This document shows positions 14,523 through 62,941 of a DNA stretch of 64,000 nucleotides, one piece after another; within the stretch, counting starts at the first letter, position 1; every line of letters begins with the position of its first letter. The stretch is from Gammaproteobacteria bacterium (lineage in GTDB: Bacteria; Pseudomonadota; Gammaproteobacteria; Eutrophobiales; Eutrophobiaceae). The notes beneath the pieces are model-generated. The model made no database searches and had not been told where the DNA came from. It worked only from the letters and a program-made list of their open reading frames with translations. Where the stretch lies: contig CBDCTH010000012.1 of assembly GCA_965222155.1 (NCBI GenBank), positions 3,445,456 through 3,509,455 of the forward strand, read 5' to 3'. Both the position numbers and the translations under genes were made by a program.

Positions 14523-14685
14523 CATCCAGGGTCAGACCAGCATAAAAAGTATAACTGTTTGATTTTAATTGATAATCCGTCTGTACATGACCTTTTCAAA
14601 TCGTTAGAACACGCGTTTTATTACGAAAAAAGACATTGTAAGAAATGTCACTTGCTTAACATGATATTTTCCGCCGTGAAAACCC
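14523..14685 (+). repeat. 245-bp junction element copy R1 (3' truncated)
   Basis: CATCCAGGGTCAGACC...GTGAAAACCC. Confidence 0.95.
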
Positions 14686-14865
14686 AGTACTTGTTTGAAC
14701 CAGAAAGGACATTTATACTCCACATATACACGCGTCAAACGCGATCTGCAATGGCCACAAGCTCAGACTGTAAGCGAAAGATAGGAATCATGGTATGCTT
14801 GGACTATTATGCCCTGGAAGACAAGAGGGACAAGCACCCGACCGAGAAATGTTGGAGAATTGGTG

Positions 14866-15288
14866 ATGGATGAGAAAGATAGCGCAGTCAATCAGAAGGC
14901 AGAGAGCACAAATAGAGTCTTTGCAGAATTCTTTAATAAAATTACTGATCGGTTTGTGCCAGCTACCTCCGAAGACGACAATGCCTCTTCATGGATAAGG
15001 TATGGTGTAACACCTCTGGGATTGTTTGTTTGGTGTGCCTACGCGTATTTATACGTGATTAATGATGAAATTGCCCGCGTAACAGAGAATCAAAATGATA
15101 TGCTATTTAAAGAACTTCCACCTGACTGGGCAGGATCAACCTCAGTAGTTCTTTGGAGTATGGCCATCATGCTGTGGTTTTTGATAGGTAAGAGCTTTAA
15201 ACGTGGGCAAGCACTGACTTTCTTTTTCTACGGTCTGATTTTCCCCACGTTAGCCTTGCAAATTCTGAGGTTCGCATTCCCATCGTAA
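14866..15288 (+). CDS. Hypothetical membrane protein (about 3 TM)
   Basis: Hydrophobic segments; co-oriented with the next ORF 15 bp away. Confidence 0.5.
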   Translation: MDEKDSAVNQKAESTNRVFAEFFNKITDRFVPATSEDDNASSWIRYGVTPLGLFVWCAYAYLYVINDEIARVTENQNDMLFKELPPDWAGSTSVVLWSMAIMLWFLIGKSFKRGQALTFFFYGLIFPTLALQILRFAFPS

Positions 15289-15303
15289 TGAGGCTCCGGA
15301 CAA

Positions 15304-15921
15304 ATGAATATATGGGCAACACAGGTATTAGTATTAATGATGGTCCTAGGTTGGACAGCACAAGTCGTCTCCCAAGGCAAACGCGATAATGCAATAGATA
15401 CGGAATACAGTGCCCAACTCGCCAACGCCAAACCGAACGATGTTGATCGTGCGACGCTTCCCAGAAAACTGCTTTGGGCGGGAATCTCATTGATCAATCC
15501 TGACGAGCGATACAAGCTTGTCCCTCTGTTCGGTTATTCCATTTCCAATTTGGATGAAAAATGGTCAGAAGAACATTTGGGCAATGTGCTGGCTAAGGTA
15601 GAGGCGGGCAGTGTCCGTCTTGCCATACTGAAACTAGATGCAGTTGCATCAGATTCTGGGAACACTTATAAAGGGCAGGGCATCCAAGTCAGCAGTAAAA
15701 AAAACAGTAATTTCCCAGTATATACTCAGGCACAGGTGTCCAATTTCCTGAAGGCTAATAGCATAGATATAAGTTATAAAGACATGATCGCATTCAGCCA
15801 ACCCCTTAGCGATGTGGATTTCAAGGAAGAATTCATTGCCAATTCAACTCTCTGGGCCAACGATAGCAGTGTGCGTCTACCTGACAAGGATACGGCTTCT
15901 ACATCATTAGTAAAAAAATAA
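15304..15921 (+). CDS. Hypothetical secreted protein
   Basis: N-terminal signal-like hydrophobic stretch; 205-aa ORF. Confidence 0.5.
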   Translation: MNIWATQVLVLMMVLGWTAQVVSQGKRDNAIDTEYSAQLANAKPNDVDRATLPRKLLWAGISLINPDERYKLVPLFGYSISNLDEKWSEEHLGNVLAKVEAGSVRLAILKLDAVASDSGNTYKGQGIQVSSKKNSNFPVYTQAQVSNFLKANSIDISYKDMIAFSQPLSDVDFKEEFIANSTLWANDSSVRLPDKDTASTSLVKK

Positions 15922-16081
15922 GAAGATACCTGTTAGGCGGATTCAAGTCATAAGTGCAACAAGTGGTTTGGTATTGTTCTGAACCAGCTCAGCGAATACC
16001 TCCCACGGGGTCTTAAACCCCAAACTTATACGCAAAATTAATGTCTTTTGCTATCAGATACAAAAGTATGCGTTTGCCCTG

Positions 16082-16180
16082 CTTTACCGGCCCGAATCCC
16101 GGAACGTTCTGCACCATGGCGTACTTTATGGTATTATCAAGTTTGCGCCGCGAACGCGTGTTTCTTCGTTCAAATGTCAT
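16082..16180 (-). pseudogene. Sulfotransferase 5' fragment
   Basis: MTFERRNTRSRRKLDNTIKYAMVQNVPGFGPVK aligns with RRLNILIKRAMVHNIPGFGPPK of 59925..60737. Confidence 0.7.
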
Positions 16181-16268
16181 TTATTAGTAGTGGGCAGGGA
16201 GCAGTTATGTGTAAGTGTGTTAGTCAAACCAGGATGACCTGTAATTATAAGCAAAGGAGTTCAACACA

Positions 16269-16586
16269 ATGCAACTACTCATAGAATCTATGGCAATTAT
16301 CATACCCTTGACCGCGATCATGGTGACGCTGTTTTCCTGGTTGCGTCAGGACATCAGGGCACAAGGTGATCGTCTCGATAGACGCATCGACGAACAGGGC
16401 AAGGAGATCAGGACGCAAGGTGATCGTCTTAATGAACGCGTCGACGAACAGGGCAAGGATGTCAAGATTCTGATCGCTGACATATCCGCCCTGAAAGCCA
16501 CGCTGGAAACTTTCTTCCGACTGCGCGTGGACCCGCCCCAGCCACCGGACAATACTAACCCTGATCAGGTCAGCAAGGTCGCATGA
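16269..16586 (+). CDS. Small TM plus coiled-coil repeat protein
   Basis: AAGGAG RBS; N-terminal TM; two 18-aa (54-bp) repeats IRAQGDRLDRRIDEQGKE / IRTQGDRLNERVDEQGKD. Confidence 0.65.
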   Translation: MQLLIESMAIIIPLTAIMVTLFSWLRQDIRAQGDRLDRRIDEQGKEIRTQGDRLNERVDEQGKDVKILIADISALKATLETFFRLRVDPPQPPDNTNPDQVSKVA

Positions 16587-16685: not shown

Positions 16686-16770
16686 ACCGGAATCGGTGTT
16701 CACCTTCAACCGGAATCAGTGTTCATCTTCACCGGAATACGCAGTCCTGGCGGTAGAAGTCGCTCAGGCG
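16686..16770. mobile_element. IS21-type terminal remnant fused to 27 bp of the mtfA-like 3' end
   Basis: Reiterated CCGGAATC..TGTTCA.CTTCA motifs ending GGAATACGCA; the same junction occurs at 58834..58897. Confidence 0.7.
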
Positions 16771-16854
16771 CATCCAGGGTCAGACCAGCATAAAAAGTAT
16801 AACTGTTTGATTTTAATTGATAATCCGTCTGTACATGACCTTTTCCAATCGTTA
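16771..16854 (+). repeat. Junction element copy R2 (5' 84 bp only)
   Basis: Sequence identity to other copies. Confidence 0.95.
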
Positions 16855-16863
16855 ATGGCAGTG

Positions 16864-17106
16864 CATCCAGGGTCAGACCAGTATAAAAACTATAACTGTT
16901 TGATTTTAATTGATAATCCGTCTATACATGACCTTTTCCAATCGTTAGAACACGCGTTTTATTACGAAAAAAGACATTGTAAGAAATGTCACTTGCTTAA
17001 CATGATATTTTCCGCCGTGAAAACCCTGTTCTAATCCTTAAAACGGCGCGCTATTGAGAATTTTATCCTCTATAATCATAGAGTTATATTGGTCCGACCC
17101 CCTCGT
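16864..17106 (+). repeat. Junction element copy R3 (full)
   Basis: CATCCAGGGTCAGACC...GGTCCGACCCCCTCGT. Confidence 0.95.
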
Positions 17107-17306
17107 GTCGTCGTATCACTGCAGCCTGCAAGTTGTACACTGGGCGACTATATCAGGCACTCAAGAGTTTCCGCACCGGTGTGGTCATCGCACCTGCGGT
17201 CTGATGTGATTTAACATAGATAATTGCACGTTACGTGAGAATTTGCGAAAAATTTACGAATAATGCTATAATTGTGTCATCTAAATGCCCCAAAAGGAAT
17301 AAGCCA

Positions 17307-18578
17307 ATGCTGTTACGTTTTGCTGTAGCAAATCACCTTTCCATTCGCGAGAGTCAGGAATTGTCCTTCGCTGCATCTTCGTTGAGAGACCGAGGCGATG
17401 GGCTAATTGACTGCAAAGCGGTGCAGAGCGGGTCAGTTTTGCCCGCGATAGTGATCTATGGCGCCAATGCATCAGGCAAATCCAATATCGTGAATGCAAT
17501 AGCCGCCATGATGAAAATGGTATTGAGGTCGCATACCCAGGGTGAACCCGGTGGTGGCGTACCACGCCATGCATTTAAGCTTGATTCAACTTGTTCGCAA
17601 ACCCCGTCCAGATTCGAAATCGACTTCGTCATCGATGACGTAAGATACCATTATGGATTTGAAACAACGGATGAAGTTTTTGCTGCGGAGTGGCTGTACA
17701 CTTTTCCCAAATCACATCGCAGAAAGATGTTCGAGCGCGACAACAGCGAATTTGAATTTGGACGCTGGTTGAGAGGGCAGAACAATAATATTGCTGGATT
17801 GACTAGACCCAATAGCCTATTTTTATCAGCTGCCGCACAGAATGGTCATGAGCAGTTATCAAAAATATACGAATATTTTAGGTCAATTAAGTTTGCTAGT
17901 ACGATTTCAATACCAGGTATAGAGGCTTCAGCGCGATTTGTAGGAGATGACCCAGATTCACGGGTGATCGATTTCTTAGCATCGATCAATACTGGGGTTA
18001 TTGGTTACCAAAAAAGGACAGATGAAATTTCGGAAAAAGATCGAGCAATACGTCGAGAGCTAATCGCTATAGTTGAAAAGTTTTCAGATGGTCCTATAAA
18101 ATTTGAACCCGACGAGGATGATAAGCATGTTGCTATTGAACTGGCTCATCGTGGTCGGCAGGGAGAGTCGGTTTATCTTGACTTAGATTCGGAAAGCGCT
18201 GGTACACGGCGGTTATTGATAGTGCTTGGCCTGGTATACCAAGCATTGGATAAGGGTGTCCCGCTATGCGTAGACGAAGTGGATGCCAGTCTGCATACCC
18301 ATGCCAGTGAAGCGATATTGAAGTTATTCTGCCTACCAGAGATAAATCAAAGCGGTGCGCAGCTTATTGCTACAACTCACGATACTAACTTAATGAAATC
18401 GTCAGTATTGAGACGCGATCAACTTTGGTTTACTGAAAAGACCTCGGAGGGAGCTACGGAGCTTTATCCGCTAACGGATATTCGAACGCGCAAGGGCGAC
18501 AATATTGAATTAGGGTATTTGCAAGGCCGATTTGGAGCGCTTCCAAGTGACGACATAACATTGCCAATTCGTGAGTAG
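17307..18578 (+). CDS. RloA-like AAA_21 ATPase
   Basis: IYGANASGKSN, ESAGT, VDEVDASLH, QLIATTHD, LRRDQLWF, YLQGRFGALP motifs. Confidence 0.85.
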   Translation: MLLRFAVANHLSIRESQELSFAASSLRDRGDGLIDCKAVQSGSVLPAIVIYGANASGKSNIVNAIAAMMKMVLRSHTQGEPGGGVPRHAFKLDSTCSQTPSRFEIDFVIDDVRYHYGFETTDEVFAAEWLYTFPKSHRRKMFERDNSEFEFGRWLRGQNNNIAGLTRPNSLFLSAAAQNGHEQLSKIYEYFRSIKFASTISIPGIEASARFVGDDPDSRVIDFLASINTGVIGYQKRTDEISEKDRAIRRELIAIVEKFSDGPIKFEPDEDDKHVAIELAHRGRQGESVYLDLDSESAGTRRLLIVLGLVYQALDKGVPLCVDEVDASLHTHASEAILKLFCLPEINQSGAQLIATTHDTNLMKSSVLRRDQLWFTEKTSEGATELYPLTDIRTRKGDNIELGYLQGRFGALPSDDITLPIRE

Positions 18579-18584
18579 AATTGA

Positions 18585-18666
18585 ATGGCGAGGCTCAAGA
18601 TACCGCCAATCCGACGGCGAAAATCGCGTAAAGAACCGAAACAACATTTTGTCCTGTTTTGCGATC
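18585..18666 (+). pseudogene. RloB-like gene, only the first ~27 codons
   Basis: MARLKIPPIRRRKSRKEPKQHFVLFC resembles RloB N-termini; directly follows the ATPase and is cut by R4. Confidence 0.65.
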
Positions 18667-18672
18667 ATCCAG

Positions 18673-18918
18673 CATCCAGGGTCAGACCAGCATAAAAAGT
18701 ATAACTGTTTGATTTTAATTGATAATCCGTCTGTACATGACCTTTTCCAATCGTTAGAACACGCGTTTTATTACGAAAAAAGACATTGTAAGAAATGTCA
18801 CTTGCTTAACATGATATTTTCCGTCGTGAAAACCCTGTTCTAATCCTTAAAACAGCGCGCTATTGAGAATTTTATCCTCTATAATCATAGAGTTATATTG
18901 GTCCGACCCACTCGTATG
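18673..18918 (+). repeat. Junction element copy R4 (full)
   Basis: Sequence identity; preceded by an extra CATCCAG. Confidence 0.95.
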
Positions 18919-22559: not shown

Positions 22560-22814
22560 TCATATTTCAGGCTTTGCAACGTCGATTACGTAAATTGAGA
22601 TCTTGCGCTTCTCGTCTTCTGAGAGCGTGTCGAGCAAACGATTTTCGAGATCGGCAGCACTTTTTGGCCGGCGTCTCTCCCCGGGTGTTGATCGACAATG
22701 TTCCGTGTCTCCGAACCAGAATACGAGATAAATTCCATAACTATCTGCGCCCGGGTCCCGAGTGTATTTGGCAATCAACTGCGTTTTTATCGCACTCCAA
22801 AGATCGCGATGACA
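22560..22814 (-). pseudogene. 3' end of the IS21-interrupted gene (C-terminal endonuclease-like domain)
   Basis: CHRDLWSAIKTQLIAKYTRDPGADSYGIYLVFWFG continues VEVKRSCHR of 25396..26161. Confidence 0.75.
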
Positions 22815-22973
22815 TGCGTATTTCACGGCAAAGCTGCCTCCCATTACATCCGAAAGCTGCCACCTGTTACACGGCAAAGCTGCCACCCCTGACGGGGTAA
22901 AAATCCGGAGTGTTTGACGCGGATAACCACCGGTATCCTGTATCCTTTTTTCTGTTGAAAGGAGGAGACGCAA

Positions 22974-24515
22974 ATGCCTGCAAAGAGGTTATCCATGAGA
23001 AAGATAAAAGACGTTTTACGCTTGTGTTGGGGGCAGGGCCTGAGCAAACGCAAGGCCGCCAGAAGTTGCGGGGTCTCACGTCCGGCGGTCGATGAGTATC
23101 TGCGCCGGGCCGAGGCGGTCGGGCTGTGCTGGCCGTTGCCCGCGGGGCTGGATGATGGGGCGCTGGAGCGCCTGCTGTTTCCGCCCCCACCGGTCTTGCC
23201 GGCCGGGGAACGCGGCGTGCCCGATTGGTCTCACATCCACCAGGAGTTGAAACGAAAAGGCGTCACCTTGTTTCTGTTGTGGCAGGAATATCGCCAGCGC
23301 CATCCTCACGGTTATCAGTACACCTGGTTCTGCCAGCATTATCGAACGTGGTGCGGCAAGCTGGACCTCGTCATGCGCCAGACCCACCGGGCCGGTGAGA
23401 AGCTGTTCGTGGATTATGCCGGCATGCGGGTTGCCATCATCGACCCATCGACCGGGGAGGTGCGTGAGGCGGAGGTCTTTGTGGCGGCGCTGGGCGCGTC
23501 CAACTACACCTATGCCGAGGCCACCTGGAGCCAGGGCCTGGAAGATTGGGTCGGTGCGCATGTGCGCTGTTTTGCGTACCTGGGTGGCGTGCCTGAGTTG
23601 GTGGTGCCTGATAATTTACGCGCCGGGGTCAGCAAGGCGCATCGCTATGAGCCGGACATCAACCCCACCTATCAGGACATGGCCACACATTACGGGGTCG
23701 CCATCCTGCCGGCGCGGGTGCGTCGCCCGCGTGACAAAGCGAAAGCAGAGGTCGCCGTACAGGTGGTGGAACGCTGGATTCTCGCCGCGCTGCGCCACCG
23801 TCAGTTCTTCTCACTGGCGGCCTTGAACCGTGCCATAGATGAACTGCTGGCGCAGCTCAACAATCGGCCCTTCAAGAAACTGCCGGGTACCCGGCGCGAG
23901 CAGTTCGAGCAACTGGACCGGCCGGCCCTGCAGCCCCTGCCCACCGAACCCTATGTGTATGCCGAGTGGAAACGGGTGCGCGTACACATCGACTATCACG
24001 TCGAGGTGCATGGTCACTACTACTCCGTGCCCCACGCGCTGGTCAAAAAGCAACTGGACGTGCGCATCACCCGCCATACCATTGAGTGTTTCCATCGTGG
24101 CCAGCGGGTCGCCAGCCATCGACGCGCATACCACAAGGCACGCCATACGACCGTCACGGCCCATATGCCCGAGGCACACCGTCAGGCCGGTGAGTGGTCC
24201 CCGCAACGCCTGGGACGCTGGGCGGCGAAGGTCGGGCCGGCCACAGAAACACGTATCCTCAGTGTGCTCTCTGCCCGCAAGCACCCCCAGCAAGCCTACC
24301 GTAGTTGCCTGGGGATTTTGCGCCTTGATAACAGCTATGGCAAAGACCGGCTGGAGGCCGCCTGCCAGCGCGTACTCACCCTGGGCAGCCACAGTTACAA
24401 GAGTATCGAATCCATCCTCCGCCACGGCCTGGACCGGCAACCTCTCGCCGAGCAGACCGAGGCGGCTTTGCCCGAGGACCACGATAACATCCGTGGCCCC
24501 GCCTATTACCACTGA
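22974..24515 (+). CDS. istA: IS21 transposase IstA
   Basis: [37 protein letters not shown]. Confidence 0.95.
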
Positions 24516-24534
24516 CCGATAACAGGAGACTGCT

Positions 24535-25290
24535 ATGTTGACACATCCCACCCTGGATAAACTCCAGACACTGAAATGTACCGCTATGGCCACCGCCCTG
24601 ACCGAGCAGATGCGTATGCCGGCTATCGAGGAGTTGGCCTTCGAGGAACGCCTCGGTTTGCTGGTCGACCGGGAAATCACCGAGCGGGAAAACCGACGCC
24701 TCACCAGCCGGCTGCGCCGCGCCCGACTCAAGCATAATGCCGCCTTGGAGAATGTCGACTATCGCCATCCGCGGGGACTGGACAAAGCCCTGATACAGTC
24801 GCTGACCACCTGCCAGTGGGTCAGCGAACACCTCAATATCCGCATCACCGGCCCCACCGGCGTGGGCAAAACCTGGCTGGCCTGTGCCCTGGCACACAGC
24901 GCCTGCCGGCACGGCTACACAGCCCTGTACCTGCGCCTGCCCAGATTCCTGCAGGACAGGGCAATCGCTAAGGGGGATGGACGCTATCCCAAGCTCCTCA
25001 CCACCCTGGCGAAAACGCATGTCCTGATCCTCGATGACTGGGGTCTTGTCACATTGACCGCAGAGCACCGCCGTGACCTGCTGGAAATCCTGGAAGACCG
25101 CCACGGGCTACGCTCCACACTGGCTACCAGCCAGTTGCCGACCGAAAAATGGCACGACAGCATCGGCGACCCCACACTCGCCGATGCGATCCTTGACCGG
25201 CTGGTTCACAACGCTTACAAGCTCAATCTCAAGGGAGAATCCATGCGAAAACACAAAGAAAAGTTGACGTACACCACCCTGGCTGAGTAA
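24535..25290 (+). CDS. istB: IS21 ATPase IstB
   Basis: GPTGVGKT, LILDDWG, TLADAILDRL. Confidence 0.95.
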   Translation: MLTHPTLDKLQTLKCTAMATALTEQMRMPAIEELAFEERLGLLVDREITERENRRLTSRLRRARLKHNAALENVDYRHPRGLDKALIQSLTTCQWVSEHLNIRITGPTGVGKTWLACALAHSACRHGYTALYLRLPRFLQDRAIAKGDGRYPKLLTTLAKTHVLILDDWGLVTLTAEHRRDLLEILEDRHGLRSTLATSQLPTEKWHDSIGDPTLADAILDRLVHNAYKLNLKGESMRKHKEKLTYTTLAE

Positions 25291-25395
25291 TACTACCCAA
25301 AACCCGCGTCGCTCCGCTCCGATGGGTGGTAGCTTTGCCCCGTTCCGGGTGGCAGCTTTCACGTGTGATGGGCGGCAGGATTCAGTGAATTACGC

Positions 25396-26161
25396 GATGA
25401 CAGCTTCTCTTAACCTCCACCGGAGCGTTGAAACTACCGTAACATACGTGAATGTCTGACCGTTTGTCGTTGGCGTAACGACCCTCCGGTTGGGCGTCGA
25501 TACCCAATTGCTTTAACCTGTCTTGTAAAGCTGATAACAGTGCATCCCGGCACGCGTCTTCCGGTTTCGGGTTCTGTGGTCGATTGTAAGAGTCTACGTT
25601 CCAATACTGGCGCCAGTCGGATGTGTTTCCATAGCGGATGTTTTTTGATATTACGCGTAAATATTCAAACGTCAGCGCGGCGAGGTCGTTAGCGTTCGCA
25701 GGATTGCGATTATCGAGTACCTCAAGCACCTGCTCGACCTCGGGATGCTGAAATTCGACTTCACGTCGCGTGATGTTCTGTTGATATTTGGCATCGTTGA
25801 GATAGGACCGCCAAGGGAGCAGCTCATCGTCGGACGACAGCGTTTCGAGAGCATCGGTAGCGGCCCGGGTTGGGACGGATGCCAGTTGATTGATGAATCT
25901 CCGAATGTGGTCCGGCGCTGTCATGGCCGCTGTCACAGTAATGTCTTCTTCCGAAGTGGAATCAAGAGAATAAGGTCTGCAGGAAGGACCGATCAGCCGG
26001 ACCAGAAGTTGCAGTATCGGAACAGTCAGGCGTTCGATGACCCCTTGGGTTTGGACCGCCGCCAAGCATCGAAGTCGGCGTTCATTACCGGCTGTATAGG
26101 ATGCCAGCCTTTCGAGATACGAGTCCGGCGAAGCAAGAAGACCGGCGGGAGTTTGGGACAC
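25396..26161 (-). pseudogene. C-terminal part of a larger protein with a restriction-endonuclease-like domain; 5' truncated and IS21-interrupted
   Basis: PKPEDACRD...PEGRYANDKRSDI...VEVK motif; no convincing N-terminus; begins at an AGTGTCCC motif. Confidence 0.65.
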
Positions 26162-26207
26162 TCATAAAATAGCGAATTCATGCCACTGAGTCTTATCGCC
26201 AGACCGA

Positions 26208-26537
26208 CTAATTAATCTTGCAAAGGATCCTTATATGATTGCCTTTCATTTCTGCCTGGTATTTCGGAGGATCCCGGAAGGGCCATGGGCAATCGCCCCG
26301 CTTTTTCATCCAATTACCGATGCTTTGGCTACGAATTTCCGAGCATGTGCGCCAGAATGATGGGCTTAGTTCGATATTCAGGGGCTGCACTTCACCGTTG
26401 CAGAGAGGCAGTTCGAGGACAACTTCACTCAGCCCTTTGAACAGTTTATTACGATCCATTAGCTTTACTCCGAACCCCAATGCTCCTGGTGCCTCCCTTG
26501 TTCCCGATTTCCAACCAGTCAATTCTATAATCGTCAT
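26208..26537 (-). CDS. Small hypothetical protein
   Basis: Open frame with SPSFWRTCSEIRSQSIGNW; function unknown. Confidence 0.5.
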   Translation of the reverse strand: MTIIELTGWKSGTREAPGALGFGVKLMDRNKLFKGLSEVVLELPLCNGEVQPLNIELSPSFWRTCSEIRSQSIGNWMKKRGDCPWPFRDPPKYQAEMKGNHIRILCKIN

Positions 26538-26851
26538 GTTCATCCACTCAGTGTTTTTGGATATAGAAAGTATAAACCCCGTTATTCTCGCAAATCCATA
26601 CTCATTTTTTGTCAGCCTTTCCCTCTTCTTCACTGGAAGCTGATATAAGTTTGTCCAATATGTATTGCACCCGGACAATGTATTGACTGTTTTATGAAGC
26701 ATGTTATAAGATCAGGACAACTATTTGAGCTTGTGCAAGGGTAGTATATCCGATGGGTGAAGATTGGCATTTACCTGTATCGGAGCAGAAAAAAGCCTCA
26801 TTAGACGGCTGATATCAACGGACCAACGGGATTTTTGCAGGAGGAATTGAA

Positions 26852-27781
26852 ATGGCCAAACGTATAAGTATTATCAACTTCAAAGGTGGGGTTGGTAAAA
26901 CCACCCTTGCATATCACCTCGGCACTGGACTGGCAAAGTATCATAATGCCAGAGTACTGCTGATAGACGTGGACCACCAAAGCAGTTTATCCATTGTTTG
27001 CTTAAAGGCTGATAAATGGCAAAAAGCAGTCGATGAAAAATGTACGATTAATGAGGTCTTTCAACCGTTTGTTGGCCAATCATCTGGCCCACCCGGTGAT
27101 GAAATTATTCTCAGAGAGCCAATCAGGAATAGGGGCTATAACAGCATGGACCTCGTTCCTGCCAGCCTGCAACTTGATGATACCGAAATTGAACTGACGG
27201 CTTCACATCAGGGTAACGCTATCCACTCGGAATGGAACAAGAGAACTCTTATATGTCGTTGGATTGAAGATGTCGGAATTAATGATGAATACGATTATAT
27301 TATTTTCGATTGTCCACCCGCGACGAAAATCGTTTCCCAGAACGCCATTGCAGCTAGCCATGGTTATATCATTCCCGTTGTTCCGGAAGCAGTGATGGAG
27401 CGTGGAGCACCCCATCTGTACGAAATGGTACGGACTGGCATTGATACCCGATTGAATGCGCTAGCTGCAATGGGAGAACCAAGAAAGATGTACGTGTCCG
27501 AGACTAAACTTGTCGGGTTGGTAATCACTCGAATACAGACTGCTGGGGGCTACTCTGGATATACCAATGATCACACTCAGCATCTCGATTCGCTGAAAAG
27601 GCGTTGGAAAAATATGTTGGTAAAACCCTATATTGTTCAGGGAACAGGTCTGTCTCAGGCCTTGGCAGATGGCGTTCCGGTTTATGATCGGAGTTCGACC
27701 CAGAACGTAGGTGGGCGAGGAATTCATAAACAGTTTGAGAAACTGACAACCGAACTTAAACAGAGGGTTGACAGCCTATGA
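26852..27781 (+). CDS. Orphan ParA/Soj-family ATPase, copy A
   Basis: NFKGGVGKTT deviant Walker A, IDVDHQ, FDCPP; GGAGG RBS. Confidence 0.88.
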   Translation: MAKRISIINFKGGVGKTTLAYHLGTGLAKYHNARVLLIDVDHQSSLSIVCLKADKWQKAVDEKCTINEVFQPFVGQSSGPPGDEIILREPIRNRGYNSMDLVPASLQLDDTEIELTASHQGNAIHSEWNKRTLICRWIEDVGINDEYDYIIFDCPPATKIVSQNAIAASHGYIIPVVPEAVMERGAPHLYEMVRTGIDTRLNALAAMGEPRKMYVSETKLVGLVITRIQTAGGYSGYTNDHTQHLDSLKRRWKNMLVKPYIVQGTGLSQALADGVPVYDRSSTQNVGGRGIHKQFEKLTTELKQRVDSL

Positions 27782-28296: not shown

Positions 28297-28317
28297 GCAG
28301 TATAATTCTGAATATAG

Positions 28318-28395: not shown

Positions 28396-28411
28396 GAAAT
28401 TCAGAAATTCA

Positions 28412-28569: not shown

Positions 28570-28572
28570 TAG

Positions 28573-55116: not shown

Positions 55117-55551
55117 TCAATGGTCGTTTGTCTGATCATCCTTCTTATCCTTTTTGTTCGTTATCAGCTGTTCCAATTCAGACTCGATGGTTGTTACGAT
55201 TTTCTCAGCCATATCATAGATTTTGCCGGCTTCAGCAGCATCAATAAGCTTGCCGCTATAGTCTGCCACAAGTCTTGCATTCTCTGTTTTAGATAAATAA
55301 TCCGATATATCTAAATCTACCATGCCGGCATTGACAATATGCCGGTGAAACTGGATATTCACCCCCTTGTGTGTTTTCGGAACAGCAAGCCCCCGCGCGA
55401 TCAAAGCGCTGCAAACCGCATTATAGGCAGCATAATACGCACTTGTGCATGTATCGCGATAAAAACCGTTGTCCAGCGCAGAGCGTGATGCACCGAGACG
55501 CTCATAGGCAAGCGCCATATATTGCTCAGGCGTTAATTGCTGTTCGTCCAC
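55117..55551 (-). CDS. HEPN-domain protein
   Basis: AYYAAYNA, KTHKGV, RLVADY. Confidence 0.85.
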   Translation of the reverse strand: MDEQQLTPEQYMALAYERLGASRSALDNGFYRDTCTSAYYAAYNAVCSALIARGLAVPKTHKGVNIQFHRHIVNAGMVDLDISDYLSKTENARLVADYSGKLIDAAEAGKIYDMAEKIVTTIESELEQLITNKKDKKDDQTNDH

Positions 55552-55943
55552 GTTATATCCACCCCGTCGGCCAGCACGTTGCGGTAGAAATCAGGATTGC
55601 GTTGTTTACTCGGTTGGTGCAGTTCGTCTTCCCAGACGACAAAGGCTTCCACGTACATCGGGTTGTCCATCCCCATCATGATTCTGGACCTGACCACAGC
55701 CAATTGCATCATGAGATCAAAGAAGGTGCCATCGCCCGGGTCTGAACCGGACAACACCACCGCGATATCCACGTCGCTGTCCGTCTGATGGTCGCCGCGG
55801 GCGCGGCTGCCGTACAGCAGCACCTTAGAGATGCTAGGCAACTCAAGATCATGAAGGCGAGTCATGAATAATTTAACGGCCTGTCTCGTGTCGGGAGACA
55901 GTACATCATCAGGCCTTGCAGCATTGGTCAGTGTTGTCTCCAT
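55533..55943 (-). CDS. Minimal nucleotidyltransferase (MNT)
   Basis: LYGSRARGDHQTDSDVDIAV; overlaps the HEPN gene. Confidence 0.88.
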   Translation of the reverse strand: METTLTNAARPDDVLSPDTRQAVKLFMTRLHDLELPSISKVLLYGSRARGDHQTDSDVDIAVVLSGSDPGDGTFFDLMMQLAVVRSRIMMGMDNPMYVEAFVVWEDELHQPSKQRNPDFYRNVLADGVDITWTNSN

Positions 55944-56137: not shown

Positions 56138-56480
56138 CATCCAGGGTCAGACCAGTATAAAAAGTATAACTGTTTGATTTCAATTGATAATCCGTCTGTA
56201 CATGACCTTATCCAATCGTTAGAACACGCGTTTTATTACGAAAAAAGACATTGTAAGAAATGTCACTTGCTTAACATGATATTTTCCGCCGTGAAAACCC
56301 TGTTCTAATCCTTAAAACAGCGCGCTATTGAGAATTTTATCCTCTATAATCATAGAGTTATATTGGTCCGACCCCCTCGTATCCCCTCGTATGTACCTCT
56401 AAGGGGGGTGGCTTTGTAAAACGCTTGTTGAGTACACCTGCTCTCTAACTCAAATTTTGTTGATTTTAGTTTTATTAAAA
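56138..56480 (+). repeat. Junction element copy R8 (right end stuttered) plus 87-bp extension
   Basis: Ends CCCCCTCGTAT-CCCCTCGTATG at 56393, then the extension. Confidence 0.95.
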
Positions 56481-56651
56481 TTTTTCATTAGTGTCCCAAG
56501 AATTAATCGAATAAATTCAACTGGTTAAGTATATCATGGCGGTCTGTTTTGTAATCGGTCTGCGTAAGTAATTGATACAGAGGTACTTTTTCAAACAGGG
56601 TCAGGCTTAAAACCTGTAACATTGTGTAGAGTTCTGCAATTCAGCAATTCA

Positions 56652-56801
56652 GGGGACACAATAATTAATTATCGCCGTCACAAAAGAAAACATCCCGACG
56701 GCGGTTCTCCCGTTGCGTCATGTAGTGGGGATACTCAGGTAGAACGATCATTGCCAGCCTTGACATATTGGCAGTATTCCAGAATTAAGTATTGTGTCCC
56801 C
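56652..56801 (-). mobile_element. Internally deleted RAYT element keeping the N-terminus
   Basis: Same inverted ends as 28412..28569; minus strand MSRLAMIVLPEYPHYMTQRENRRRDVFFCDGD. Confidence 0.78.
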
Positions 56802-56851
56802 AGAACTCCTATTGTTTAACGTGGGGCCGTCAGCTATACTTGTCATACCCC

Positions 56852-57322
56852 ATGACCTCACCGGATATTTTATCACCTGATGTACTGGGTTACGACCCGC
56901 GTCCCGACCAGCACGATTGGCGCGGCACGCCCATTCCCAAGGTAAACAATCCTTTGCCCGCCACCCCCGAACTGGTGGAGATTGCGGACAAGATGTGGTG
57001 GAACGGGGACCCCTGGACCATCCTGCGCAACCGGGTTGTCTTTCTCCGCCACGCGCTGGATTATGCCTTGGAGGGGCACTGCGAGTTCCTGTGGCGGACA
57101 ATCCCGCGCGAGGACTGGGTGCATATGCTCACCACAGCAAGGCCCGGCCAGGTGTCCATGCGCTCCTGGAAGTACTGGTCCTGGCGCGCGGGCCTGCTGG
57201 ATGAGCGTCTTCGCATCCCCGAAGAATGGCACCAGCCCAGACATATCATAGACCTGATATATAACAATCAACAGACCTGGGCTGACATAAAACAGGAATT
57301 GCTTTCCAGTGAAAGTGGCTGA
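56852..57322 (+). CDS. Putative antitoxin partner of an AbiEii-like toxin
   Basis: Overlaps the downstream nucleotidyltransferase gene; Trp-rich. Confidence 0.6.
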   Translation: MTSPDILSPDVLGYDPRPDQHDWRGTPIPKVNNPLPATPELVEIADKMWWNGDPWTILRNRVVFLRHALDYALEGHCEFLWRTIPREDWVHMLTTARPGQVSMRSWKYWSWRAGLLDERLRIPEEWHQPRHIIDLIYNNQQTWADIKQELLSSESG

Positions 57323-58043
57323 TATAAATTTAGAGCCTGTTCATATGGATTTCATGGATCAGGACATGATTGATTTGTGGGAGAGGATGGTAGCCCACGA
57401 TCTGAAAACATATCGGCTCTACGGCGGCACGGCGCTCGCCATGTACTTGAATCACAGAAATTCTACGGATTTCGATTTCTTCCGGGACGGTTCGGTGACA
57501 AAAGCCGAGATTGAAAAATTCACATGGCTGAGAGGCGCACAATTCAGAGGGACCAGTGGCATGGTGGATGCCATGATGCCGGCCTCAAAAAGAAGTATCA
57601 CAATAAATTTCATTAGCACAAGATCATTTAATGGCATCCCCCCCACACAGAGTCCGATACGTGCGGCAAATGGCATATTTGTGGCGCATCCCGTTGATAT
57701 TCTGACCGGGAAGCTGTCTGCCATGTCACGACGAAAAGAAGTACGTGATTTTATTGATATTGCCAGCGCGCACGATGTTATCCCAGACATGCTGCAAGAT
57801 GCAATTGATGTCTATTTGCAGGATTCTATGACACAGGAGGCGTCACGCAGGGAACTGGCCAAAACTATCATAGCTTGCCCACAGGCTGTCGAATACGAAC
57901 TGTCTGATCAGTTATTGAAATCGCTGAGCGCATTGACAGAGTCTCTCAGCGCACCTGAAGATGGCAATGGCAGGGGGCGCAAAAACGTTCACGCTTCGTC
58001 AAAGAACGCCGATAAAACGACAAAAAGGACTGATCGTCGCTAA
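57309..58043 (+). CDS. AbiEii/AbiGii-family nucleotidyltransferase
   Basis: LYGGTALAMYLNHRNSTDFDFF, K...R...RDFIDI. Confidence 0.85.
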   Translation: MKVADINLEPVHMDFMDQDMIDLWERMVAHDLKTYRLYGGTALAMYLNHRNSTDFDFFRDGSVTKAEIEKFTWLRGAQFRGTSGMVDAMMPASKRSITINFISTRSFNGIPPTQSPIRAANGIFVAHPVDILTGKLSAMSRRKEVRDFIDIASAHDVIPDMLQDAIDVYLQDSMTQEASRRELAKTIIACPQAVEYELSDQLLKSLSALTESLSAPEDGNGRGRKNVHASSKNADKTTKRTDRR

Positions 58044-58832: not shown

Positions 58833-58833
58833 A

Positions 58834-58870
58834 AACCGGAATCAGTGTTCACCTTCACCGGAATACGCAG
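58834..58870. mobile_element. IS21-type terminal remnant
   Basis: AACCGGAATCAGTGTTCACCTTCACCGGAATACGCA. Confidence 0.65.
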
Positions 58871-59586
58871 TCCTGGCGGTAGAAGTCGCTCAGGCGCCTG
58901 TAGACGGCAGGGTAGGCGCTGTCAAGTACAGCTGGCGCATCAAAAAAATACTCGCTGGTAACAGCGAAGAACTCAGCAGGGTCCTCGGCGGCGTACTCGT
59001 CTATCACCAGCGTCTCGCCGGCATCGATACGGCGGTTCATATCCTCGAAAGCCGCGCCGAAGTCCCGGTTCCAGGCTTCGAGGTCCATACCCCGGTGCAG
59101 CGACGGGCAGCCGTTTGCCCCACCATGCAACATGTCAAGTTTGTGAGCCATCTCATGGATTATGACGTTATAACCCTCGCCCTGCCCTGAGGCTGCGATA
59201 TCTTCCCAGGAAAGGATAACCGGGCCACACAACCAGGCCTCGCCGGCTCGGGCTTCCTCCCACTCATGTTCAACGCCAGCCTCATCCATCTCGTATTCCC
59301 GCGCGACAAAGCTGCCGGGATAGACTACGATACTATGCCACGAACTGTAGGCGCCAAGACCAGGAACAAGAACAGGCAGACAGGCCTGGGCCGCGATCAC
59401 AACCAGGTCCAGCGCATCAAGGCACTGTCCGCGTACCGGTTCGATGGACTTGCCGGCGATAAAACGAGCGGAAAGTTCCCGCAACCTGGCGCGTTCGCTT
59501 GCATCCAGCGGTGCAAGCGCAGGAAGGGCGTCAAGCGCCGCTCTCCATACGGATTCATCAATTGGTTTTTGCCGATGCGGCCACAT
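58855..59586 (-). CDS. mtfA: MtfA/M90-family zinc peptidase, last codons replaced by the IS end
   Basis: NVIIHEMAHKLD, YAAEDPAEFFAVTSEYFF, FYRQD. Confidence 0.8.
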   Translation of the reverse strand: MWPHRQKPIDESVWRAALDALPALAPLDASERARLRELSARFIAGKSIEPVRGQCLDALDLVVIAAQACLPVLVPGLGAYSSWHSIVVYPGSFVAREYEMDEAGVEHEWEEARAGEAWLCGPVILSWEDIAASGQGEGYNVIIHEMAHKLDMLHGGANGCPSLHRGMDLEAWNRDFGAAFEDMNRRIDAGETLVIDEYAAEDPAEFFAVTSEYFFDAPAVLDSAYPAVYRRLSDFYRQDCVFR

Positions 59587-59924: not shown

Positions 59925-60737
59925 TCAGACATCCACCCAAGAGTGATCTGTTTCATAGCCCAGATCTATCAGCGCATGACCGGCATAATGATCGAATACT
60001 TCCCGTGCTTCCCGCGTAAAATGGTTCTTCCAGTCCCCGACGATGCCTTTACGGACAAAGCAGTGAGCATTTTCCTCGCCAGGTTTGCGGCCCGTGACGT
60101 TCTCAAATGAGAATTTTGAAATACATGAGACAAGTTTCTCATCATCGATCTTTTGCTCCGAGATATATTGAAGAATCTTTTTCATCTCGCGTCTGGGATT
60201 TTCCCTCATTGCCTCATAGCTGGTCTTCACGCATCCTGTCCGGTTCTTCCACGTTTCGATAAAACTTGTCCATGTCATATGGAGTGGGGGCCCATCAGTG
60301 AAACAATACTCGATGTATCTCGGTAAGTAGCGTTGTACGTCGCGCGGGTCTTTGATACCGAGTCGTTGCTGCTGCTCTTCTGCCCAGCCCCGCATCGTCG
60401 TTCTTCTATGAAACAGATGATAGTAATAGTGTGATACGATTACGTCTCTCCCGTCGCGCCACATAACGATAGTATCATTGGCACTGTCGACGTAGAGGTA
60501 ATGACCATGCAGTATGCACCGGCGCCGTGTCGGTAAATGATCGCGCGGATTGGGCATGTCCATATATTCGGCTACCATCTGGCTCACCCAGGTTCCGCCT
60601 GACTTGGGGTGTTCGGTCAGTACAATCTTCGGAGGACCAAAACCCGGAATATTGTGTACCATGGCGCGCTTGATCAGTATGTTCAGTCTACGCCACCAGA
60701 GAGAGTTTTTCCGGTCGCCTATCACCCTGCACCCCAA
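59925..60737 (-). CDS. Sulfotransferase (intact)
   Basis: HPKSGGTW, WRDGRDVIVS, FVRKGIVGDWKNHFT. Confidence 0.88.
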   Translation of the reverse strand: MGCRVIGDRKNSLWWRRLNILIKRAMVHNIPGFGPPKIVLTEHPKSGGTWVSQMVAEYMDMPNPRDHLPTRRRCILHGHYLYVDSANDTIVMWRDGRDVIVSHYYYHLFHRRTTMRGWAEEQQQRLGIKDPRDVQRYLPRYIEYCFTDGPPLHMTWTSFIETWKNRTGCVKTSYEAMRENPRREMKKILQYISEQKIDDEKLVSCISKFSFENVTGRKPGEENAHCFVRKGIVGDWKNHFTREAREVFDHYAGHALIDLGYETDHSWVDV

Positions 60738-61024
60738 ACTTTGATGCGTTTAAGAATTTTACTGTCTCCTACTATATAAATATTTACAATCGATACGACG
60801 CAGCCAATGCGATTACGTTCTTCTCTCTATGGCCACACTGCATCGCTACAACTCTTTTATTGTTGATGGCGCAGATTTTACCGCATAAAACATACCTGAT
60901 AAATCGCTGATATATGATTATTTTCAACACAGCATTGCACTTTATTCATTCTTCCTTACGCCATATGAAAAGCCGTTGTCAGCGGCTGATATAATCCGGC
61001 TTTAACAGCAACCCCGGAAGAACA

Positions 61025-61939
61025 TTGAAACAAAATAAAATGGCTGATTTTCTCGTTGTCGGCGCCGCTCAGTCAGGGACAACGACATTGTTCGAGATTC
61101 TCCGTGAGCATCCCCGAATTTTTATGCCTCAGCGCAAGGAATCTCGATATTTTTCTTGTATGCCGAGAGATATTGCGGGGCCAAGGACAGTATCACCGAT
61201 TGATAATCCTCAAACTTTAGATGAATATAAAAAACTATTTATAAATGCAAAACCCGACCAACTCAGTGGGGATATATCACCTGATTACCTGTATCATTGC
61301 CAAGTTTCAGTTCCTAAAATTCTTAACGAAATCAATGCGCAGATACCGATTATTATTATTTTGCGAAATCCCGTTGAAAGGGCTTATTCGAACTACCTCC
61401 ACCATGTGCGCGACGGTTGGGAGAATTTGAGTTTTGAGGATGCTCTGGATGCGGAGGAGCAACGTCGTACAGCAAATTGGGCTTGGGGGTGGAATTACGT
61501 CGGCGTCGGATTATACGCCGAACAGGTCAAAGCCTATCTGGACAATTTTGAACGAGTGTTGTTGCTTCTGTTTGAAGAAGACATCGTAACGGGCCTGGCA
61601 ACGGACAAGGTGTTGGATTTTCTGAACATCGGACCCTTCCAGGCAGGCCCCGGTAAAGTTCATGCAAACATTTCCGGATATCCGCAAAATCGCCTCTTGC
61701 ACTGGATTATGACGGACAAACTGGTTGTCAGAAAAGTCAAGAATGCGGTCAAGACAACGCCTTTGTATGCCTGCTCAAAGCAGATATACCGGAAAGTGAT
61801 GGAGGCGAACCTAAGAAAGAGGAAATGGCCCCGCACACCAGGCAGATGCTCAAAGAGAAGTTTCAGGATGATGTTGCCCTGCTGGCCGAGTACACCGGAC
61901 TTCCGGTGCAGAAGTTCTGGCGGATTTTCAATGAGATAA
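61025..61939 (+). CDS. Sulfotransferase, probable frameshift near the 3' end
   Basis: DFLVVGAAQSGTT, LRNPVERAYS; the expected tail MAPHTRQMLKEKFQDDVALL is in another frame. Confidence 0.8.
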   Translation: MKQNKMADFLVVGAAQSGTTTLFEILREHPRIFMPQRKESRYFSCMPRDIAGPRTVSPIDNPQTLDEYKKLFINAKPDQLSGDISPDYLYHCQVSVPKILNEINAQIPIIIILRNPVERAYSNYLHHVRDGWENLSFEDALDAEEQRRTANWAWGWNYVGVGLYAEQVKAYLDNFERVLLLLFEEDIVTGLATDKVLDFLNIGPFQAGPGKVHANISGYPQNRLLHWIMTDKLVVRKVKNAVKTTPLYACSKQIYRKVMEANLRKRKWPRTPGRCSKRSFRMMLPCWPSTPDFRCRSSGGFSMR

Positions 61940-61964
61940 GTCTTGTAACCGAAGTCGCCCAGGG

Positions 61965-62351
61965 TTACCAAAGTCGGCGAACGCCGTATCGGTCGAACGG
62001 CGTTTCAATCGAGATTAAGACAAGGTTGCGTGCAAGCGCCTGTGATATGAGCATTCTATCGAACGGGTCGCGTAGAGGGCCAGGCAGTTCGCCGGCGCGT
62101 CCGGCGTCATCCACGCTAACCGCCAGTTCCTCAAAACCCTGACTGGCAATGGTGCCTGCAATGTCTTGGGCGACCATTTCAGCGCCTTGAAGTTTACCGA
62201 GGCGATGCTTGGTTGCTATCTCCCAGGCAGAGGCTGCGCTCACCAGTACGTCGTTTGCTTCATCCGCAATCGCCTGGCGGGCTGATTGCGACAGCTTTTC
62301 GCTTCCGGCAAGCCACCACAGGAATGCGTGGGTGTCGAGCAAAAGTTGCAA
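61965..62351 (-). CDS. vapC: PIN-domain VapC toxin
   Basis: LLLDTHAFLWW, VSAASAWEI, RDPFDRMLISQA. Confidence 0.9.
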   Translation of the reverse strand: MQLLLDTHAFLWWLAGSEKLSQSARQAIADEANDVLVSAASAWEIATKHRLGKLQGAEMVAQDIAGTIASQGFEELAVSVDDAGRAGELPGPLRDPFDRMLISQALARNLVLISIETPFDRYGVRRLW

Positions 62352-62354
62352 TGC

Positions 62355-62584
62355 TCACGTATTCCAGGCAGTCAGTTCCGCTTCCGGAAGCGGATCAAAA
62401 AAGTTGTCGTCAATCGAGACCTGCCCTGCGAGGGAACCGAATTCACGCTTGCCGCGGCTATTGCAACTCACGAGCCGAGCTACCGGTTTGCCGTTACGGG
62501 CTATGACGACCTCCTGGCCGTCCTCGACTTGCGCGAGCAACGCGACAATTGGGTCTTTGCTTCATGTACATTCACTAAAGGCAT
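62355..62584 (-). pseudogene. Phd/YefM (VapB-type) antitoxin with a 1-bp frameshift
   Basis: MPLVNVHEAKTQLSR in one frame; LAQVEDGQEVVIARNGKPVARL in the next. Confidence 0.75.
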
Positions 62585-62695
62585 CGCCGGTTCCTTGATA
62601 TAACAGTTAGCTAATTATATGACTAAGAGCTATAATGTGTCAAGCGGCCTGAGAGAATTCACTCCGTTTGTCAGAACTCTTGGGAAAGACTTGTT

Positions 62696-62941
62696 CATCC
62701 AGGGTCAGACCAGTATAAAAACTATAACTGTTTGATTTTAATTGATAATCCGTCTGTACATGACCTTTTCCAATCGTTAGAACACGCGTTTTATTACGAA
62801 AAAAAGACATTGTAAGAAATGTCACTTGCTTAACATGATATTTTCCGCCGTGAAAACCCTGTTCTAATCCTTAAAACAGCGCGCTATTGAGAATTTTATC
62901 CTCTATAATCATTGAGTTATATTGGTCCGACCCCCTCGTAT
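62696..62941 (+). repeat. Junction element copy R9 (full)
   Basis: Sequence identity. Confidence 0.95.

Follow-up and report, generated by a model that had tools for sequence, protein, structure and literature searches.

Defence islands are known mosaics, and to our knowledge it is mostly unknown how their modules are joined outside integrons and IS26-type arrays. IS26 and other IS6-family elements form direct arrays, move as translocatable units and produce adjacent deletions; stutters at the element tips are not a known trait of IS26 arrays. The attC sites of integrons are about 60–140 bp long, and REPs measure a few tens of bp. In this study, we analyzed a stretch of 64,000 nucleotides (hereafter, the window), the final 64 kb of contig C12, in which a 245-bp, non-coding foldback repeat, here named R, lies, with all copies facing one way, at nearly every seam of a mosaic of toxin-antitoxin and anti-phage genes. 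A near-identical region is present in a second contig, C4.

R resembles several described systems in part. As in IS26 arrays, the copies are directly oriented between unrelated cargo with no target duplication at internal copies, the cargo is intact beside one end and truncated against the next copy, and island variants differ by deletions beginning at an element end. Unlike IS26, R has only 245 bp and no transposase, its ends are unlike those of the IS6-family element of this genome, genes of that family occur in just 2 of 23 genomes of the genus, and R-type tips show stutters. R is also like a MITE in being small (under about 600 bp), without coding capacity and bounded by terminal inverted repeats, with many copies, subfamilies and a foldback structure; however, the inspected copies show no target duplication, no parent with the same ends was found, and the R subfamily is restricted to one island and one orientation.

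The arms of the wider superfamily of R occur singly or as inverted pairs, locally clustered, intergenic and without duplication, as in REP/REPIN systems with a RAYT, but at about 110–120 bp they are longer than REPs, and they are absent from the flanks of this genome's Y1 genes. Similar to integron arrays, co-oriented imperfect palindromes separate unrelated modules, often of defence or toxin-antitoxin genes, whereas no integron integrase was found in the window ORFs scanned or near the G002 array, R is longer than attC, its spacing ranges from 93 bp to 19 kb, and the multi-gene cargo lies on both strands and ends in broken genes. In the relative G020, an IS1634-family transposase sits between R-like arms, the sole case of arms flanking a transposase; this element has inverted repeats of its own and, within the R-like copy, a 4-base duplication, and it was rejected as the parent of R, being a nested guest.

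Copies of R and their joints

The window holds six full and three partial copies, and the original prediction of nine copies of an element of about 245 bp, all on the + strand, was confirmed at every start position:

R1, 14523-14691, + strand: left 169 bp, right arm missing; the C4 island has the same truncation.
R2, 16771-16854, + strand: left 84 bp, with the break inside inner motif B; 9 bases (16855-16863) follow, then R3.
R3, 16864-17106, + strand: full; 128 bp upstream of an AbiLi-type ATPase gene (17235-18578).
R4, 18673-18917, + strand: full; 7 terminal bases tandem-duplicated at the left joint; an IS256-type transposase fragment on the right.
R5, 37897-38141, + strand: full; 11 nt of its right tip are repeated directly behind it (38142-38152), and an extension, X (38153-38238), comes next.
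R6, 38542-38752, + strand: 32-bp internal deletion; followed by X (38753-38838).
R7, 39887-40131, + strand: full; the C4 counterpart has no substitution difference and a different left flank.
R8, 56138-56382, + strand: full; followed by an 11-nt tip repeat (56383-56393) and X (56394-56479).
R9, 62696-62941, + strand: full; a Fic-family gene of the - strand has its stop 10 bp away.

R consists of two diverged arms of about 120 bp each in inverted order (inverted-order arm homology, z 6.3), and each arm carries two conserved, protein-binding-like motifs. Hairpin folding of the whole repeat is strong (z -4.1 and -3.7), its core motif is a 4+1+4 palindrome, and the imperfect inverted-repeat ends that had been predicted are real in the copies. 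Rfam gave no match at the gathering score across the whole window and chance-level matches only for R itself (E 1.9–5.9). Small tandem stutters were observed at the element tips, which the IS26 model does not predict.

The ends of the six full copies are precise, with all left joints beginning at the same base and right joints ending within one base. None of the six has a flanking direct repeat, bearing out the predicted lack of target-site duplication, and no duplication was present at 13 other arm pairs of the same genome with printed flanks. The position of the left end is constant, and the right extents differ (84 bp, 169 bp, 245 bp and 245 bp plus X), R1 and R2 both being broken within inner motif B. 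At the joints for which the uninterrupted sequence is known (R1, R2 and R6), 0–2 bases are common to flank and element, and those shared at the left tip may be element or target. Such precise ends beside unrelated flanks would suit an enzyme specific for the ends more readily than joining by slippage or microhomology.

The flanks had also been described as often broken, and the following remnants were recognized beside the copies:

14385-14522, - strand: C-terminal 46-aa sulfotransferase fragment directly adjoining R1 on its left; it matches positions 222-254 of the 255 in the Sulfotransfer_1 profile.
16708-16770: M90/MtfA fragment directly adjoining R2 on its left, with 98% identity to the gene at 58855-59586 (3-prime end).
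38238-38534: IS5-like element, intact elsewhere at 46689-47996, of which the left 297 bp are present here, stopping 7 nt short of the left end of R6.
38902-39886, + strand: AbiEi at 38902-39525; AbiEii starts at 39459 and is truncated by the left end of R7 to its N-terminal third.

Together with an N-terminal fragment of an IS256-type (Mutator) transposase to the right of R4, these verify five of the seven broken flanks named (sulfotransferase, M90/MtfA, IS256-type, IS5-like and AbiEii), whereas the 34-aa rloB fragment named at R4 had no match. The remnant at R2 covers the last 43 nt of its gene.

The cargo between the copies follows a pattern. Reading frames on the + strand begin about 40–410 bp to the right of R1, R3, R6+X and R8+X, those after R1 having no function found, and the far ends of modules are truncated genes against the next left tip (the mtfA fragment at R2, the IS5 fragment at R6 and the AbiEii fragment at R7). 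A putative AbiLi partner is apparently truncated likewise against the left tip of R4. Right joints are sometimes broken too, as by the IS256 fragment at R4, and IS21, IS5-like, IS1380 and IS256 insertion sequences also disrupt the island. The 7 bases immediately left of R6 are common to R8, so that a unit of 7 nt, R and the 86-bp X is present at both, and R+X is found at R5. The cargo behind this unit is AbiE-type at both sites, but R8 lies upstream of a second pair that is unrelated to the one at R6 and has no protein similarity to it. A unit longer than R (R+X) probably moves too.

Distribution of R and two versions of the island

The 4.55-Mb assembly contains 15 copies of the R subfamily, solely in the window island (nine) and the C4 island (six, all on the + strand), the latter being a variant of the former with 97–100% identity. 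The genome-wide search thus agreed with the prediction: the subfamily is not scattered and occurs only in two homologous islands, each co-oriented. The two-sided probability that nine copies face the same way is indeed 0.004, or 0.016 with seven independent copies, and clustering outweighs co-orientation as evidence, all 15 copies lying in two homologous stretches of about 50 kb.

R belongs to an abundant, genus-wide superfamily of arms. Elsewhere in the same genome its members are dispersed in both orientations, which goes against an island-specific type of site; because of these members, directionality is not a fixed property of the superfamily. Partial copies in other genomes retain the right end, in contrast to the left end retained in the window.

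The C12 and C4 versions of the island show differences at element ends, in support of reading R as a joint site, although copies were paired by their right flanks and differences at left joints therefore arise by construction. The left flank of R1 differs between them exactly at the element tip. C4 lacks window positions 18564-39886; position 18563, followed by 7 other bases, is joined to an R7-like copy without a substitution difference from R7, and this join takes off the last 5 codons of the AbiLi-type gene (17235-18578). This deletion is not explicable by homologous recombination alone, because recombination between R4 and R7 would have kept 18564-18672. Orthologous C12 and C4 copies differ by 0–3 substitutions and paralogous copies by 3–8, and the array is therefore older than the split of the two versions. 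IS21 and IS5-like elements explain part of the rearrangement. In run X3, the depth of C12-specific contigs is about 100 and that of C4-type contigs 146–177; because of this inequality, the two versions may come from different strains rather than one cell.

Candidate enzymes and readings of the array

The transposase or recombinase envisaged in the original prediction, bounded by the same termini or co-distributed with the element, was searched for and none was found. In the genome itself and in those loci of G002, G011 and G020 that were read, no such gene bounded by R ends was seen. G000 has no pair of arms facing inward around a transposase, and one metagenome scan gave 0 matches. The IS6-family transposase of the host (at C12:436906) was rejected as the enzyme, as its element has different ends (11 of 19 positions alike by eye) and the family is confined to two of 23 genomes of the genus, with G002 and its array of 14 arms not among them. 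Y1 (RAYT) was also rejected: the genome has three matches, one a fragment, and one gene is flanked by another repeat, while within 2.5 kb of the other complete gene no arm motif occurs. Just one recombinase lies near a copy:

41192-41908, - strand: small serine recombinase, catalytic domain at residues 93-223, 1 kb from R7.

It is not co-distributed with R. Its matches in the genus are in G002 (three, all with internal stop codons), G022 (two, one with stop codons) and G011 (one, 35% identity, no stop codon), none of them where arms were mapped.

Considering all the above results, we tentatively favor, at somewhat under an even chance, the reading of R as a non-autonomous, MITE- or REPIN-type foldback transposon. 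It would have multiplied locally within the island, its copies both building up and eroding the island much as IS26 does. We infer the reaction chemistry, an enzyme supplied in trans and the sequence of events. A putative enzyme acting in trans would recognize the ends of R and act replicatively or via cointegrates, like IS26 and other replicative elements. First, a copy with DNA of its right-hand neighbor would be joined beside another copy, giving direct repeats without target duplications. Second, an element end would attack nearby DNA and the intervening DNA would be deleted, leaving a truncated gene butted on the element tip with at most two shared bases. Third, homologous recombination among the 245-bp direct repeats would add or remove whole modules. 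A rare contig of run X4, in which window position 48458 is joined to the left tip of a copy with only 25 nt on that side, weakly supports new joints at tips. The 14 co-oriented single arms of the relative G002 show a similar habit and agree with this reading.

It is unlikely, but deserves the most weight among the alternatives, that R is an ordinary small inverted-repeat element moving locally by cut-or-copy-and-paste, with island decay having erased duplications and broken flanks, and with the orientation due to chance or a few local duplications. The superfamily does behave elsewhere as a normal dispersed repeat in both orientations, the island holds many other insertion sequences, the array is not very young, and the flanking sequence shared by R5, R6 and R8 suggests that some copies are duplicates of a larger piece. 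However, independent decay would have had to stop precisely at the tip of the element at five joints or more, no inspected copy of any subfamily has a duplication, all 15 copies lie within about 2% of the genome, and shared orientation is seen not only in 9 of 9 copies in the window but also in 14 of 14 single arms within about 10 kb in the relative G002.

Rather doubtful, and a shade less probable again, is the reading closest to the original prediction of a capture and shuffling system, namely that the arms of R serve as the active ends in a capture system not described before and driven in trans. Its enzyme, specific for the ends, would link the tip of R to DNA of any kind and insert element-plus-neighbor units next to resident copies. 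Of the original prediction, co-orientation, confinement to the island, the lack of duplications and truncated joints of modules were borne out, whereas a growing cassette array proved to be one of several readings.

An attachment-type site is improbable. Circular modules with one R would integrate into a resident R, for example via the serine recombinase at 41192-41908, and pile up in tandem as in tRNA-linked islands and integrons. Unrelated cargo between direct repeats without duplication, a recombinase gene so close to R7, and the breaks of R1 and R2 at a possible crossover site are consistent with this; but the cargo ends are truncated genes and not whole mobile modules, the recombinase matches are few, mostly interrupted and away from mapped arms, integrase families had no match among those window ORFs that were scanned with Pfam or around the G002 array, 245 bp exceeds the size of integron sites, and the C4 junction lies outside the repeat.

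Equally improbable is single-stranded or rolling-circle movement with an HUH-type enzyme (IS200/IS605-like, REP/RAYT-like or IS91-like), which would give no duplication, a bias of strand or direction, one-ended products and read-through (R+X). The missing duplication, the constant left end with variable right extents, the strong hairpin folding and the presence of Y1-type genes agree with it. Against it, these genes lack R-type surroundings, a search for Y2 genes, the control of which was silent, was empty, no conserved target word extends past the shared terminal bases of R, partial copies elsewhere keep the right end instead, and the core palindrome is too short for a hairpin.

Lastly, an assembly artefact at a repeat, or a two-strain chimera, is very improbable, despite the position of the window at the end of C12 with its near-identical region in C4, a contamination figure of 7.28% for the genome and the differing contig depths, since Logan contigs of runs X3 and X4 cross three joints (S4|R5, R7|S7 and S7|R8) without mismatch, leading out of unique flank and about 25 nt into R, run X5 from another study holds C12-specific segments, and five of the six C4 copies keep the right flanks of their C12 counterparts with copy-specific substitutions, which is not expected of a collapsed repeat. 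No Logan contig of runs X3, X4 and X5 spans a whole copy, which speaks for an artefact; X5 reaches just 7 nt into R5, its other listed pieces lying within unique island segments.

Implications for defence islands

Here a gene-less repeat stands at nearly every seam of a mosaic, and the seams differ between two naturally occurring versions of the island. If IS26-type direct arrays are the closest known behavior, as in the foldback-transposon reading that we favor, the principle of R arrays would not be new. If instead the capture reading were true, a transposase-free repeat would assemble, shuffle and trim anti-phage and toxin-antitoxin arrays in one direction, as a miniature, non-autonomous counterpart of IS26 or integron arrays, and its enzyme could come from a family not yet linked to such behavior. 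If no such enzyme exists, the case would still show foldback repeats acting as breakpoints. If an enzyme for the ends of R were found, the list of IS26-like elements would become longer, and R would offer a tractable case of small repeats building and pruning defence and toxin-antitoxin arrays in an uncultured bacterium.

Copies and anatomy of element R

The window forms the final 64 kb of contig C12 in a 4.55-Mb assembly of 12 contigs (own genome, G000). All nine + strand copies of the non-coding foldback element R reported in the original prediction were present at the starts listed below, together with the imperfect inverted repeats described at the ends of the element. None of the full copies was flanked by direct repeats, in agreement with the reported absence of target-site duplications.

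Copies of element R in the window and broken genes at their joints
R1, start 14523, + strand: left 169 bp kept; sulfotransferase C-terminus at the left joint
R2, start 16771, + strand: left 84 bp kept; last 43 nt of an M90/MtfA gene at the left joint
R3, start 16864, + strand: full length (243-246 bp over the six full copies)
R4, start 18673, + strand: full length; IS256-type N-terminal fragment at the right joint
R5, start 37897, + strand: full length
R6, start 38542, + strand: 32-bp deletion inside the copy; 297 bp of an IS5-like element at the left joint
R7, start 39887, + strand: full length; first third of AbiEii at the left joint
R8, start 56138, + strand: full length
R9, start 62696, + strand: full length

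R consists of two diverged, inverted arms of ~120 bp (left half against reverse-complemented right half, z 6.3 against shuffles). Each arm carries one outer motif, with a 4+1+4 palindrome core a few bases inward of the tip, and one inner motif located ~60 nt inward of the outer one. Single-stranded R was predicted to fold into a long hairpin (fold z -4.1 and -3.7 for the two strands). Promoter-like matches were close to the shuffle level (3 against a shuffle mean of 1.4, sd 1.3), and R matched no Rfam family.

Broken flanks had been claimed at several copies; those at R1, R2, R6, R7 and on the right of R4 were confirmed, but the 34-aa piece assigned to 'rloB' had no match. At the joints of R1, R2 and R6, for which the unbroken sequence is known, 0-2 bases are common to flank and element. 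At R1, R3, R6 and R8, + strand reading frames begin ~40-410 bp beyond the right side of the copy (no function could be assigned to those following R1), and the far end of a module is a truncated gene abutting the left tip of the next R copy. Past their right ends, R5, R6 and R8 continue into a common 86-bp extension, X, and the 7 bases left of the element are common to R6 and R8. Downstream of X, the AbiE-type genes at R6 showed no protein similarity to those at R8; therefore, a unit somewhat longer than R was also copied before unrelated cargo.

Element tips commonly 'stutter', in R as in the other subfamilies, with the terminal 7-38 nt, often plus a few flank bases, repeated once or twice (window 18666-18679 and 38133-38152; C12:867456-867510; C12:312081-312156; locus L015 7047-7064), a pattern that the joining reaction may have left behind. 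A further case of 'end plus neighbour' copying is locus L016 on contig C10 (G000:C10:24000-29500), where a 3-kb inward arm pair surrounds host genes and a VapC-type gene, with no transposase. The right arm tip and 59 bp of its flank, the 3' end of an alpha/beta-hydrolase gene, occur there twice, 2.8 kb apart (L016 1177-1425 and 4151-4220), the second time directly after the VapC-type gene.

Island content, its two versions and read support

Glycosyltransferases, a sulfatase and sulfotransferases are encoded in the left 14 kb of the window and in portions further to the right, and the interval from R1 to R9 carries the genes listed below. The label 'defence-gene mosaic' was a fair one.

Genes of the R1-R9 interval
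ATPases and kinase: AbiLi-type ATPase; HEC-04-type ATPase; PD-T4-6-type kinase
NACHT protein and helicases: EruA-type NACHT protein (C-terminal fragment); helicases
Pairs: two AbiE-type pairs; HEPN/nucleotidyltransferase pair
Others: Fic-family gene; two ParA-like genes; small serine recombinase (41192-41908)
Insertion sequences: IS21, IS1380, IS256-type, IS5-type

Measured in 4-kb steps, the G+C content of the window varied between 0.42 and 0.58, and no tRNA gene was found in the island or its vicinity. R1 and R2 enclose two ORFs that are rare cargo, occurring in G000 and one other genome of the genus (G018) only; a 105-aa ORF between these copies contains two tandem 54-nt units that are 85% alike (window 16348-16455). 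Left of the island, three-gene polysaccharide blocks are repeated as tandem paralogues with ~82% identity (279-3327 and 7296-10441), and sulfotransferase paralogues are located at 3370-4080, 59925-60737 and 61025-61939.

In G000, the R subfamily is confined to the window and a stretch of contig C4 (72072-125422), which is 97-100% identical and holds six R copies, each of them + with respect to the sequence common to both. This stretch is a second version of the island, paired with C12:3436187-3509455 (window -9268 to 64000) and differing from it by several rearrangements; identity by segment was 97.3 to 100%, and contig C12 terminates within sequence common to both versions. Orthologous R copies of the two versions differ by 0-3 substitutions and paralogous copies by 3-8, and thus the R array predates the split of the C12 and C4 versions.

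Window 18564-39886, comprising R4, R5, R6 and 21 kb of cargo, is missing in C4. At the C4 junction, position 18563 is followed by 7 other bases and then by a copy with no substitution difference from R7, so that the AbiLi-type gene loses its last five codons. Had R4 and R7 exchanged, 18564-18672 would have been retained; hence, the C4 deletion ends at an element tip and not within the repeat. At R1, the left flank differs between the versions outward from the first base of the element, and the truncated right side of the copy is common to both. Further differences concern IS21 and IS5-like elements and the block 22682-28572, which is located elsewhere in C4. No empty site was found for R9; the C4 paralogue of its flank diverges 52 bp short of the element.

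Between 70 and 84% of the words sampled from a 10-kb stretch were present in sequencing runs X3 and X4 of one study and X5 of a different one, and their Logan contigs covered unique island segments, C12-specific ones included; regions lacking contig cover and the low word share of run X2 are uninformative. Contigs of X3 and X4 entered R5 and R8 from the left and R7 from the right by ~25 nt without mismatch and then ended, as is expected of short-word contigs at a repeat; the X5 piece listed at R5 extended only 7 nt into the copy. Depth, which is a value per contig and not a copy number, was ~97-112 (X3) and 65-68 (X4) for C12-specific contigs and 146-177 (X3) and 102-111 (X4) for C4-type contigs. 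Both island versions are present in the sample at unequal depth, so that they may come from different strains, or the two islands may be two loci. One X4 contig (depth 31) fuses window 48458 to a copy at the latter's left tip, with only 25 nt on the copy side, a weak hint of a further island variant. Misassembly of the array is unlikely, a judgement that applies less surely to individual joints.

The R superfamily and the search for a moving enzyme

BLAST across the genus recovered one full-length relative of R (86%, in genome G011), for which no empty site was found as the copy sits among other repeats, and fragments in other genomes. The 20-nt left-end pattern of R, with up to 2 mismatches, had single sites in 4 of 22 other genus genomes. 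A plasmid collection gave no match, and a metagenome pattern scan gave 0 matches. In G000, 115 sites carry the outer 10-base motif, 62 in one form and 53 in the other; against these two counts, same-letter shuffled 10-mers, tallied one word at a time, gave a mean of ~15 and a maximum of 43. The sites fall into many subfamilies and lie scattered in arm pairs and single arms of both orientations. In a genome-collection scan, several Gammaproteobacteria MAG records among the matches listed carry the motif, most matches being estimated as chance.

In genome G002, 14 of 14 single arms are co-oriented over ~10 kb, and their unit is homologous to both R arms (z 10.8 and 18.7). This thicket (locus L013, G002:C1:1138000-1157999, at ~6900-16200) is gene-poor, interleaves at least 5 small-repeat families and adjoins an RTX-type repeat protein gene. 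A small inverted repeat family of the thicket is also found after R8 and its extension X in the window (~56600-56800). As an impression without statistics, superfamily arms often lie beside toxin-antitoxin genes of Gp49/HigB-like, ParE, VapC/PIN, AbiE and HEPN/MNT types (locus L014 5239-8139; L016 3742-4146; C12:449900-450330; window 38902-39886, 55117-55943 and 56792-58043).

A transposase or recombinase with R termini, for which the original prediction had proposed a search, was not found, and no arm pair in G000 encloses a transposase. In genome G020, an element with a 615-aa IS1634-family transposase (L015 7220-9298) lies between an R-like left part and an R-like right part. This element has inverted repeats of 20-22 bp and three further copies in G000 (L142-L144; transposases of 615-618 aa), and is bounded by copies of a 4-base palindrome; in G020, the 4-base repeat at its borders lies within the R-like copy. 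Its own inverted repeats and this border repeat mark it as a guest, and it was rejected as the parent of R.

Other candidates were also rejected. The ends of the IS4-like element at C12:1005442 share the first 10 bases only, and those of ISAs1-family elements and of the IS6-family element (C12:436906) are unlike R, the IS6 family being found in 2 of 23 genus genomes. No arms enclose the IS110-family genes, Y1 genes are flanked by repeats other than R arms, and the serine recombinase beside R7 was not found at other arm loci and is not co-distributed with R. The IS5-family element at window 4674-6234 (gene at 4698-5906) occurs at ~20 further places in G000 with 6-base direct repeats of TA-NN-TA form; it was discarded as the parent of R on account of these clear duplications and a chance-level resemblance (z 1.8-2.2). 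One other arm subfamily contains a 22-nt motif that is also present close to the transposase-proximal end of this IS5-family element (z 9.2). The Y2/IS91 search gave no match, and its control was also silent. At C12:1984900-1986700, a Y1 (RAYT-like) gene is bracketed by another short repeat in inverted copies, apparently a REP/RAYT system of its own in G000.

Possible origin of the array

IS26-type elements form translocatable units, show targeted insertion beside a resident copy and produce adjacent deletions. R resembles them in its direct arrays, in cargo with one whole and one truncated side, in a deletion ending at an element tip and in the copying of element-plus-neighbour units. From these likenesses, we tentatively favour, as a possible explanation, an IS26-like process in which an end-recognising enzyme would act on the R tips and homologous exchange between the 245-bp direct repeats would contribute. 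Such an enzyme, as opposed to passive decay, is suggested by precise tips with unrelated flanks, by the lack of duplications in the superfamily and by joints with at most 2 common bases.

Ordinary local hopping of R with subsequent decay is unlikely; the same tips and joints speak against it. Mechanisms beyond the readings considered here are given little weight. Site-specific accretion at R appears improbable, and so, to the same degree, does HUH-type single-strand or rolling-circle movement. An assembly artefact is highly improbable in view of the contigs that run into the copies.

Considering the original picture of a DNA capture and shuffling system, the directional copies at the joints of a mosaic stood, but R proved to be part of a broader foldback superfamily, no dedicated machinery was found, and the principle of the array already has a known counterpart. 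A literature search found nothing matching such arrays, though so limited a search does not establish their absence from print. The nine-copy finding is real and statistically sound. Given the spread of the superfamily in the genus and the co-oriented array in G002, R is a member of a genus-wide foldback-repeat superfamily in which local co-oriented clusters recur.
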